A DNA stretch of 64,000 nucleotides from Escherichia coli (GTDB lineage Bacteria > Pseudomonadota > Gammaproteobacteria > Enterobacterales > Enterobacteriaceae). A program made the position numbers and the translations under genes. Of this stretch, positions 15,488-34,656 are shown piece by piece; the first letter of the stretch is position 1, and each line of letters begins with the position of its first letter. The stretch is taken from NCBI RefSeq assembly GCF_029227855.1, contig NZ_CP074356.1; one strand, given 5' to 3'. The notes beneath the pieces are model-generated. The model ran no database searches, was not told where the DNA came from, and saw only the letters and a program-made list of their open reading frames with translations.

Positions 15488-15525
15488 AAGATTAAAGTTG
15501 TGATGATAATCACAACTTTAATGAT
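15488..15525 (-). terminator. Hairpin downstream of Rhs copy-2 immunity gene (putative terminator)
   Basis: 14-bp perfect stem attaaagttgtgat/atcacaactttaat with a 4-nt loop; a short U-run follows on the minus strand. Confidence 0.45.
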
Positions 15526-32352: not shown

Positions 32353-32586
32353 TCAGAGGATGGTGCCACCTTTGGTTAACTGTTCGTGGCGCGCTTCCAT
32401 ATCTTCTTTATGTTTGCGACCGTGATGGGCGATCGCTGTGCGCAGACGCTGCTGCTGGGTATAGCGTTCTTCCCGACTTAACTCCGCATCATCGCTCAGG
32501 GCGATTAATAATTCGTTCATATGGGCAATGACGCTCTCTTCAATCGCGGCATCCACGCGCGCGATGACTTCATCCAGATGCGACAT
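32353..32586 (-). CDS. ydcY: Small protein YdcY
   Basis: 77-aa ORF; synteny. Confidence 0.75.
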   Translation of the reverse strand: MSHLDEVIARVDAAIEESVIAHMNELLIALSDDAELSREERYTQQQRLRTAIAHHGRKHKEDMEARHEQLTKGGTIL

Positions 32587-32671
32587 ACTTTCTCCTTAGC
32601 CACTTGTGAAATTTATCGATTCATCCAAATGATATAAGTCTGCGTGGTGCCGTCAAGCCAGTGAGTAAGAT

Positions 32672-32845
32672 TTAAAACAGTGAAAACAACAGCGCCACCG
32701 GGAAACTCATCGGCCATGTTGCCCCCACCAGAAAGGCGCTTAAGAAACGGATGCGTTTCTTATCGTGAGAAAGAAACCAGGTGATAAGAAATGAGATTGC
32801 TGCCATAACCGCATAAAAAACAAGCATATGTTGATAGAGAGACAT
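32672..32845 (-). CDS. ortT: Orphan small membrane toxin OrtT (YdcX)
   Basis: 57 aa starting MSLYQHMLVFYAV..; single hydrophobic helix. Confidence 0.75.
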   Translation of the reverse strand: MSLYQHMLVFYAVMAAISFLITWFLSHDKKRIRFLSAFLVGATWPMSFPVALLFSLF

Positions 32846-33039
32846 GTACGGGCGTCCAGCCAGATGAATAAAACGCGCGCAAATATGCGTCATTTTTTGA
32901 CGTACATCAAGTTTTTTAACCGGTTTGAGAAAAAAACATCAAACAGCAACTTGCCCTTATCCATCTTCAGAATGAGTATTATTGCGGATTTTCTTAACCC
33001 GTACTATACACATAGGGGCAATGATAAAAGGTGGCAAAA

Positions 33040-33135
33040 ATGAATGTTTCCAGTAGAACTGTAGTACTGATAAATGTCTTTGCTGCTGTTGGTTTGTTTA
33101 CTCTTATCTCTATGAGATTTGGCTGGTTTATTTGA
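33040..33135 (+). CDS. yncL: Small membrane protein YncL
   Basis: 31-aa ORF MNVSSRTVVLINVFAAVGLFTLISMRFGWFI with RBS aaaggtgg; below ORF-track length cut-off. Confidence 0.7.
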   Translation: MNVSSRTVVLINVFAAVGLFTLISMRFGWFI

Positions 33136-33157
33136 TGTAGTGATTTTGCACGCAGCA

Positions 33158-33192
33158 CGTACTGTCAGAGAAATCAGTGCTCTGACAGTACG
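33158..33192. repeat. Perfect 13-bp inverted repeat (hairpin) between yncL and patD
   Basis: cgtactgtcagag-aaatcagtg-ctctgacagtacg; no U-run follows, so not a canonical terminator. Confidence 0.5.
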
Positions 33193-33231
33193 CAAGATCT
33201 TCTCATACTCTTACGATCTGCAATATTATCC

Positions 33232-34656
33232 TTAATGTTTAACCATGACGTGGCGGACGACGGTGTAATCCTCCAGCCCATAAAGTGACATATCCTTGCC
33301 GTAACCAGAAAGTTTCTGCCCACCGTGCGGCATTTCACTTACCAGCATGAAATGGGTATTGACCCAGGTACAACCATATTGCAGCCGCGCGCTGACGCGA
33401 TGCGCCCTGCCCACATCTTTCGTCCATACCGAGGATGCAAGTCCGTACTGGCTGTCATTTGCCCAGTTTACCACCTGTTCTTCATTGTCGAAGAGCGTAA
33501 CACTCACTACTGGACCAAATACCTCTTTTTGCACGATGGCATCGTCCTGTAATGCGCCAGCCAGTAGCGTCGGCGCATAGTAATAGCCATTACCCTTGCG
33601 CTTTTCACCGCCAGTGATCACTTTGATGTGCCCTGTCGCTTTCGCCTCTTCTACCGCCTTGCTGACGCGTTCGAGATGCGCCAGCGAACTTAAAGGTCCA
33701 AGCTCCGTAGAGTCGTCATCCGGCGCACCCGATTTTAACGTTGCCACTGCAGCACCAAGTTTTTCCACCAGCGTATCGTAAATGCCTTTTTGCGCATAGA
33801 TCCGACAAGCCGCTGTACAATCCTGTCCGGCATTGTAATAGCCAAAAGTACGTACACCTTCGACCACCGCTTCAATATCCGCATCATCAAAAACTATCAC
33901 TGGCGCTTTGCCACCAAGTTCCATATGAGTACGCTTTATGGACGGCGCAGTATGGCTGATGATGTGTTCCCCAGTGGCGATAGAGCCCGTCAGCGACACC
34001 ATCCGCACTTTAGGATGTCCGGTCAGCGGATCGCCCACCGTTTTGCCTCTGCCAAACAGTACGTTAATCACGCCTGCCGGGAAGATATCTTTCGCCAGCT
34101 CTGCCAACTTCAACGCGGTCAGCGGGGTAATTTCTGATGGTTTAAGCACTACGCAGTTTCCTGCCGCCAGCGCCGGAGCCAGTTTCCACGCGGCCATCAT
34201 CAGCGGATAATTCCACGGTGCGATCGAAGCCACGACCCCCAACGGATCGCGACGGATCATCGAAGTATGACCTTTAAGATATTCACCTGCCGCCAGACCA
34301 TTCAGACAGCGCGCCGCACCAGCGAAAAAGCGAAAAACATCGACAATCGCCGGGATTTCATCATTGAACGCACTATGCAGCGGTTTGCCACAATTACGGG
34401 ACTCCAGTTCGGCAAAAACCTGACCATTTTCTTCGATAACATCAGCCAGTTTCAGCAGACATTCCGCACGCACTTTCGGCGTGGTTTGCCCCCATTCGGC
34501 AAATGCTGCATCTGCCGCGCGCACAGCAGCATCGACCTGCTCTGCGGATGCCTCGGCAATCTCCAGTAAAACGTCCCCCGTTGCCGGATTATAGACAGGC
34601 TGTTTTTCCCCTTCGCCGCTAACCAGTTCTCCGTTAATCAGTAAATTATGTTGCAT
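33232..34656 (-). CDS. patD: Gamma-aminobutyraldehyde dehydrogenase
   Basis: 474-aa aldehyde dehydrogenase family sequence. Confidence 0.9.

Follow-up and report, generated by a model that had tools for sequence, protein, structure and literature searches.

The perfect inverted repeat located between the convergent genes yncL and patD of E. coli is probably the 3′-terminal stem-loop of the short, σS-driven yncL mRNA, the end of which would be set by trimming after Rho-dependent termination further downstream. The hairpin, the position of the 3′ end, the Rho-sensitive region downstream of it and the covariation of the stem are established here or in published data. The repeat was analyzed within a DNA stretch of 64,000 nucleotides, which is referred to as the window. 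Positions are given for this window unless coordinates of strain MG1655 are indicated.

The inverted repeat and its flanking genes

The inverted repeat spans the positions 33158 to 33192 and was determined to be CGTACTGTCAGAG-AAATCAGTG-CTCTGACAGTACG on the + strand. The repeat finder returned arms of 13 nt with a complementarity of 100%, located at 33158..33170 (5′ arm) and 33180..33192 (3′ arm), which enclose a loop of 9 nt (33171..33179). Seven of the 13 base pairs of the stem are G-C pairs. The stem is not lengthened by the flanking bases A33157 and C33193, and its local context on the + strand is GCAGCA upstream and CAAGATC downstream. A perfect inverted repeat with a 13-bp stem between yncL and patD had already been described for this position by the first-pass annotation, and every detail of this description was found to hold.

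The gene yncL (33040..33135, + strand) encodes a stress-response membrane protein of 31 aa (MNVSS...GWFI). It was identified as an open reading frame, by the RefSeq annotation of matching genomes and by the Pfam family PF28073 (YncL), which was found on orthologues. The gene patD (33232..34656, − strand), which is convergent with yncL, codes for a gamma-aminobutyraldehyde dehydrogenase according to the RefSeq annotation of matching genomes. Both gene calls agree with RefSeq, in which E. coli genomes with an identical or nearly identical sequence are annotated in this way. The stem starts 22 nt past the yncL stop codon, and 39 nt separate it from the stop codon of patD. In the gene arrangement of the window, the hairpin is the only terminator-like structure after patD.

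Perfect short-spacer inverted repeats of at least 13 bp were found at only two places in the 64-kb window (33158-33192 and 15491-15522). The number expected by chance is about 0.02 per window, roughly estimated as 64,000 positions × ~18 loop sizes × 4^-13. The second of these repeats has the sequence ATTAAAGTTGTGAT-nnnn-ATCACAACTTTAAT and contains TGTGA-N6-TCACA, the core of the CRP-binding consensus.

Folding of the RNA in a 51-nt context resulted in −21.6 kcal/mol for the + strand (z = −4.4; 0 of 200 dinucleotide shuffles as stable) and −22.5 kcal/mol for the − strand (z = −3.6; 1 of 200 shuffles as stable). No T-run could be found after the stem on either strand (CAAGATCTTC on the + strand and TGCTGCGTGC on the − strand). 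The tail right after the stem is CAAGAUCUUC on the + strand and UGCUGCGUGC on the − strand, with three U within the 9 nt past the stem on the yncL strand, and the sequence upstream of the stem holds no A-tract. The hairpin was not called as a terminator in a scan for promoter and terminator patterns. Both the reading of the two tails and the negative scan confirm the earlier observation that the palindrome is not followed by a U-run on either strand. A promoter-like match (9/12) at 33182-33209 was at chance level, with 3 such matches found and 1.9 expected.

The only terminator-like pattern called nearby was ACGCGCGCAAATATGCGT followed by CATTTTTTGA at 32873-32899 on the + strand, where it overlaps with the beginning of ortT (32720-32893), a gene of the − strand. 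The reverse complement of this stretch is the sequence of a weak orphan 3′ end, which was listed at MG1655 position 1517357 (+) by Adams et al. (2021).

Published transcript ends and Rho-dependent termination

In the Term-seq analysis of MG1655 by Adams et al. (2021; eLife, PMC7815308, supplementary file 1), a 3′ end was mapped to position 1517039 on the minus strand, where yncL is encoded. The 61-mer reported around this position (PMC7815308) is TTTGCACGCAGCACGTACTGTCAGAGAAATCAGTGCTCTGACAGTACGCAAGATCATCTCA, i.e. TTTGCACGCAGCACGTACTGTCAGAGAAATCAGTGCTCTGACAGTACGCA[A]GATCATCTCA, with the bracketed A as the 3′ end. The 3′ end is found at position 51 of each 61-mer, as was verified on the sgrS row of the same table. 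The yncL transcript ends with ...CUCUGACAGUACGCAA-3′ at CA[A], which is 3 nt past the last paired base and outside any U-run. The equivalent of this 3′ end in the window, placed with the published 61-mer, is position 33195 on the + strand.

The 3′ end was covered by 75,265 reads in LB at an OD of 0.4 and by 536,300 reads at an OD of 2.0 (PMC7815308). The coordinate occurs three times in the file, which comprises three condition sheets. In the table it was classified as 'antisense to patD' (PMC7815308). This label apparently reflects an annotation gap, with yncL not having been considered for the classification.

A σS-dependent yncL transcript was described for Salmonella, in which it had originally been listed as a discrete sRNA under the name STnc1110 (PMC5437024). 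For E. coli, the promoter region of yncL/ortT stood out with a strong peak when genomic SELEX was carried out with the RpoS holoenzyme (PMC5493296). This σS promoter signal fits the 7-fold higher count of the yncL 3′ end in stationary phase. In addition, the sRNAs RprA and KilS were reported to contact yncL.

Downstream of the hairpin, a Rho-termination region peaks at MG1655 position 1516753 on the minus strand, 286 nt downstream of the yncL 3′ end, with a Rho score of 16.6 and p = 5e-21 (PMC7815308, supplementary file 2). The reads upstream and downstream of this region were 220 and 9 without bicyclomycin and 106 and 72 with bicyclomycin, respectively (PMC7815308); these values refer to 800-nt windows, from which it does not follow that the majority of the polymerases runs past the hairpin, and pervasive antisense transcription also rises with bicyclomycin. 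Without the inhibitor, about 4% of the coverage goes on downstream of the peak (9/220).

Transferred to the window, the untranslated read-through antisense to the 3′ end of patD comprises positions 33196..33481 (+ strand) up to the Rho-region peak, which was placed by its offset from 33195, assuming that patD has no indels compared to K-12. This read-through is richer in C than in G throughout. The C/G ratio on the yncL strand was found to be between 1.1 and 1.7 in each 80-nt window from 33196 to 33755, i.e. for more than 500 nt past the hairpin.

For the patD strand, no 3′ end was found in the Term-seq tables searched, and neither gene is named in the TERMITe supplements. In the 'excludome' list, patD-yncL is one of the convergent gene pairs whose transcripts overlap in 50% or more of the 58 RNA-seq data sets of MG1655 (PMC12288877). 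A 3′ end at the hairpin is mapped for the yncL strand, and the overlap of the pair is based on a coverage criterion.

Conservation, covariation and replacement of the hairpin

A 59-nt query centred on the hairpin had matches in 5,411 of the 5,426 complete genomes of E. coli, at one locus in each. That a median of 2 'places' was counted is most likely due to the palindrome, which can be matched by the query on both strands. Within the 64-kb window no further exact copy of the arms was found, only three matches with 2 mismatches, and the region 32500-33800 gave no Rfam match at E-values up to 10.

The variation within E. coli was determined from an alignment of complete genomes sampled across the identity range. 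Inside the hairpin it was restricted to the loop, for which the alleles AAATCAGTG, AAATCAACT and AAAACAACT were found, and both arms were unchanged in all sampled genomes. The AACT loop alleles add one or two pairs to the stem. The immediate flanks vary as well, with polymorphisms at 33193 (C/T) and 33200 (T/A). One arm mismatch each was observed in three low-coverage metagenome contigs (L158, L173 and L140).

For the comparison across genera, yncL copies were collected by a PatD-based scan of species-representative genomes and by screening metagenome contigs with a degenerate DNA pattern based on the N-terminus of YncL. The resulting set contained 126 copies with 18 protein variants and 44 distinct 3′ regions. 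The lineage names Salmonella and Klebsiella are putative for this set, being guessed from neighbouring genes, accession style and abundance. A stable hairpin past the yncL stop codon could be identified in all 126 copies. It starts about 11 to 42 nt downstream of the stop codon, mostly at 20-35 nt. Homologous hairpins with the core GGCAGAGAG...CTCTCTGCC were found in E. coli, a divergent Escherichia lineage, Citrobacter, one related lineage and putative Salmonella.

An alignment of 28 distinct yncL 3′ regions with a helix of 15 pairs was used for the analysis of covariation. In this alignment 84.8% of the cells were paired, compared to 34-51% with the partner column slid by 1-3 positions. Compensatory changes, in which both sides are altered, were detected in 9 of the 15 pairs. 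At pair 36-59, for example, 17 sequences have G-C, 11 have U-A and none has a broken pair; at pair 30-65, C-G was found 11 times and G-C 10 times. The covariation score was matched by none of 500 shuffles, and an 8-pair core of the same helix was found independently by RNAalifold. The two arms at 33158..33170 and 33180..33192 are partners in this covariation. Regarding the question which strand's RNA is selected, 16 G-U cells were counted versus 21 A-C cells.

The loop ranges between 4 and 9 nt across the genera. Its sequence is unconstrained and unrelated between E. coli and the other genera, and the length of the stem varies too. Just 5′ of the stem a short motif is located, which is GCAGC in the window (33152..33156, + strand). 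It lies outside of the helix and corresponds to the alignment columns 23-27, which hold G, C, a variable base (A, G or T), G and C in all 28 regions from several genera, so that four of the five positions are invariant. The sequence conservation of this motif and of the core helix GGCAGAGAG/CTCTCTGCC is higher than structural need alone would demand.

At the orthologous position of other lineages, different states of a terminator were found. The very common variant taken as Klebsiella carries a bidirectional intrinsic terminator of textbook form, AAAAAAGCAGCC-loop-GGCTGCTTTTTT, with the structure A6-stem-T6. Putative Salmonella has the homologous stem in an extended form, which is followed by CTATTTTTT (T6), and in Escherichia and Citrobacter the stem is present without a U-run. 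Since true terminators occur at the orthologous position, it is a transcript-end position throughout the family. Judged from its sequence, the E. coli hairpin appears to be derived from an intrinsic terminator by loss of the U-tract.

Of the 5,415 E. coli genomes with a match, 1,177 lack a single match that spans the junction between yncL and patD. In ET450, the split-match genome that was examined for its insert, an AT-rich segment of 1.3 kb with a gene for a CatB-related O-acetyltransferase is located between the hairpin and the patD stop codon. The hairpin is still found 22 nt past yncL in this genome, and patD has a hairpin of its own, which is followed by ATCGTTTT. The same 1.3-kb segment was identified in 12 further yncL-bearing loci. 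In Citrobacter, an MFS transporter gene and a gene of the AraC family part yncL from patD, and the hairpin remains with yncL. Since the hairpin is kept next to yncL even with other genes in between, it is ascribed to this gene. The short yncL-patD arrangement of the window is shared by the putative Salmonella lineage, for which reason the inserts of ET450 and Citrobacter look like insertions at a recurrent site. The patD orthologues of E. albertii and of several, not all, of the genera sampled possess their own terminator-like hairpin with a subsequent T-run.

The insert of ET450 (33205-33241 in the window; L001, 4313-5660) is flanked by the imperfect direct repeat CTTAATRTTTA. An integron-cassette origin (attC/GTTRRRY) of the CatB-like insert was rejected, as the junctions were unconvincing and neither an integrase nor a clear attC-like site was found by eye. 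In a second split-match genome, an IS1 insertion accounts for the split. In the K-12 derivative LAM_HS, a laboratory strain, IS1A is located between ortT and patD (L002, 2248-2945). No yncL is annotated at this locus, and the best match to the query starts just before the patD stop codon (~33224).

Origin of the yncL 3′ end

For E. coli, Dar and Sorek (2018) described Rho-dependent transcripts with precise steady-state 3′ ends directly after stable stem-loops (PMC6061677). This class is characterized by the lack of a U-rich tail and of an upstream A-tract, together with a mild excess of C over G downstream, and 24% of the stem-loops are REP elements (PMC6061677). The ends are made by PNPase and RNase II, which trim the transcripts from diffuse Rho sites located downstream (PMC6061677). 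The yncL hairpin resembles the class in having a sharp 3′ end just past a stem without U-tail or A-tract, a bicyclomycin-sensitive read-through with C > G downstream and, like about 76% of the class, no REP identity, with the dependence on exonucleases being drawn by analogy. It differs in that its stem forms a perfect palindrome of 13 bp, which a convergent gene has in common with yncL.

Following this class, RNA polymerase on yncL would run past the hairpin, since no U-tract is found after the stem, and would enter untranslated C-rich RNA antisense to patD, where Rho would release it within a few hundred nucleotides. The tail would then be trimmed back to the base of the 13-bp helix by the 3′-to-5′ exonucleases PNPase and RNase II. 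This trimming, proposed for yncL by comparison with the other members of the class, may leave the sharp and abundant 3′ end 3 nt past the stem, and the helix would protect the yncL mRNA. Like a canonical intrinsic terminator, the yncL hairpin is located at a gene end, and its stem-loop has the usual size and energy. In contrast to such a terminator, the yncL 3′ end lies at CAA and not in a U-run, and the termination downstream is Rho-sensitive, as measured in 800-nt windows. The hairpin probably also serves as the 3′ end structure of patD, since the perfect palindrome is located 39 nt past the patD stop codon and forms an equally stable hairpin in the convergent transcript.

It is possible, although rather unlikely, that the hairpin itself stops the polymerase. 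It would then be a U-tract-less bidirectional terminator of yncL and patD, at which head-on collisions take place, and Rho would be a back-up. Bidirectional terminators of convergent genes were described by SEnd-seq (Ju et al., 2019) and in a collision model (Wang et al., 2022/2023). The yncL hairpin is similar to them, as it is located between convergent genes and symmetric, folding equally well on both strands. The terminators of Wang et al. are likewise unlike intrinsic ones, and their stem-loop fixes the position of the collision (bioRxiv 10.1101/2022.10.23.513370). Furthermore, the reported overlap of the patD and yncL transcripts would be expected if both end just past a shared hairpin, and the true intrinsic terminators at the orthologous position in other genera are in line with a stop at this site. 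However, these terminators are described as Rho-independent, whereas a strong bicyclomycin-sensitive region follows just downstream of the hairpin on the yncL strand. Collisions should also be rare, since patD appears to be weakly expressed where the yncL 3′ end is abundant, as judged from the lack of a patD 3′ end in the Term-seq tables searched. In addition, Citrobacter, in which another gene lies convergent to yncL, shows the same degree of conservation of the hairpin. An excludon, in which a leaky hairpin lets stationary-phase yncL transcription invade patD in antisense and lowers patD by interference or RNase III, with Rho setting the reach, is improbable. Antisense read-through into patD is detectable and limited by Rho, the pair is contained in the published 'excludome' list, and the abundance of the yncL mRNA was reported to be altered in RNase mutants. 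On the other hand, the excludon call is a coverage threshold, which any shared hairpin would satisfy, and the link between yncL transcription and patD levels is conjecture. Moreover, the hairpin is kept where patD is not the neighbour, and only the small fraction of coverage mentioned above continues without bicyclomycin.

The palindrome could also act at the level of the DNA as a site for a dimeric protein, for example through the LexA-box-like TACTGTCAGAGAAATCAGTG at 33160-33179 (CTG-N10-CAG). Its perfect symmetry and the TACTGT and ACAGTA contained in the arms agree with such a function, which was nevertheless considered very unlikely. The full arms are 9 bp apart, which is not the spacing of any LexA site. 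A match to TACTGT-N8-ACAGTA with 2 mismatches, composed of arm and loop, is provided by the GTG loop allele only; the allele AAATCAACT destroys the CAG in many E. coli genomes, and the match is missing in other genera. At the same stringency, the LexA-like pattern occurs 26 times in the window, compared to 15 matches expected by chance. The LexA box TACTGT...ACAGTA was rejected because of this wrong spacing and the allele-specific match. A palindromic operator in general was rejected as well, as neither the sequence nor the spacing of the half-sites is fixed. A dimeric operator is disfavoured because both would stay constant in it, whereas here the half-sites vary by paired substitutions across genera with a spacer of 4-9 nt. 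From the aligned sequences, this combination of paired substitutions and a free loop is the signature of a selected RNA helix and not of a fixed-spacing operator. No literature match ties a DNA-binding factor to the hairpin; the RpoS SELEX peak belongs to the yncL/ortT promoter region. Next to no probability was assigned to a chance palindrome or a functionless relic of a repeat or a mobile element (REP/BIME, IS end or integron attC-like). An indel polymorphism and an IS1 insertion about 20-50 bp away in some strains would suit a remnant. REP/BIME elements resemble the yncL hairpin as extragenic palindromes between convergent genes that can block 3′ exonucleases. The hairpin, however, occurs in a single copy, at the 3′ region of yncL only, and does not show the REP consensus, and REP/BIME membership was rejected on account of the one locus per genome. 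Its presence in nearly all complete E. coli genomes, the lack of an Rfam match and of further exact arm copies in the window, the covariation across genera, the mapped RNA 3′ end and the low chance count all argue against a chance or remnant origin.

The 3′-terminal stem-loop of the yncL mRNA accounts for one of the two functions that had been suggested by the first-pass annotation. An RNA processing or stability element is supported by the in-vivo 3′ end 3 nt past the stem, the Rho-dependent termination downstream and the compensatory substitutions, and a protein-binding site is contradicted by the paired changes of the arms and the spacer of 4-9 nt. The same annotation had named, as an outcome against its reading, that Term-seq would show the repeat to be simply the 3′ end of the yncL or patD transcript with no regulatory role. 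This is largely what was found, as the hairpin is the 3′ end of the yncL transcript and no evidence for a regulatory role beyond the transcript end was obtained, yet it cannot be classed as a canonical terminator with a U-tract.

The loss of the U-tract in Escherichia and Citrobacter might in principle be adaptive. The hairpin would then be a leaky terminator, and a factor reading the core GGCAGAGAG/CTCTCTGCC and the 5′ motif, either a protein or an sRNA (RprA or KilS, for example), would set the amount of yncL antisense transcription into patD. This is a highly doubtful reading; if it were true, a stress-induced small-protein gene would be coupled to putrescine catabolism. As the 3′-terminal stem-loop of the yncL mRNA, the hairpin is a further case of a class already described in E. 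coli and opens no new biological question.

For the annotation of E. coli, the 3′ end at MG1655 position 1517039 belongs to the yncL mRNA as its primary 3′ end and is not merely antisense to patD. With the hairpin as its end, the transcript is about 150-200 nt long and is the same as the Salmonella 'sRNA' STnc1110. Within the family, the position represents a natural series with A-tract, stem and U-tract in putative Klebsiella, stem and U-tract in putative Salmonella and the stem only in Escherichia and Citrobacter. This series could help to study the decay of intrinsic terminators into Rho-dependent 3′ ends.
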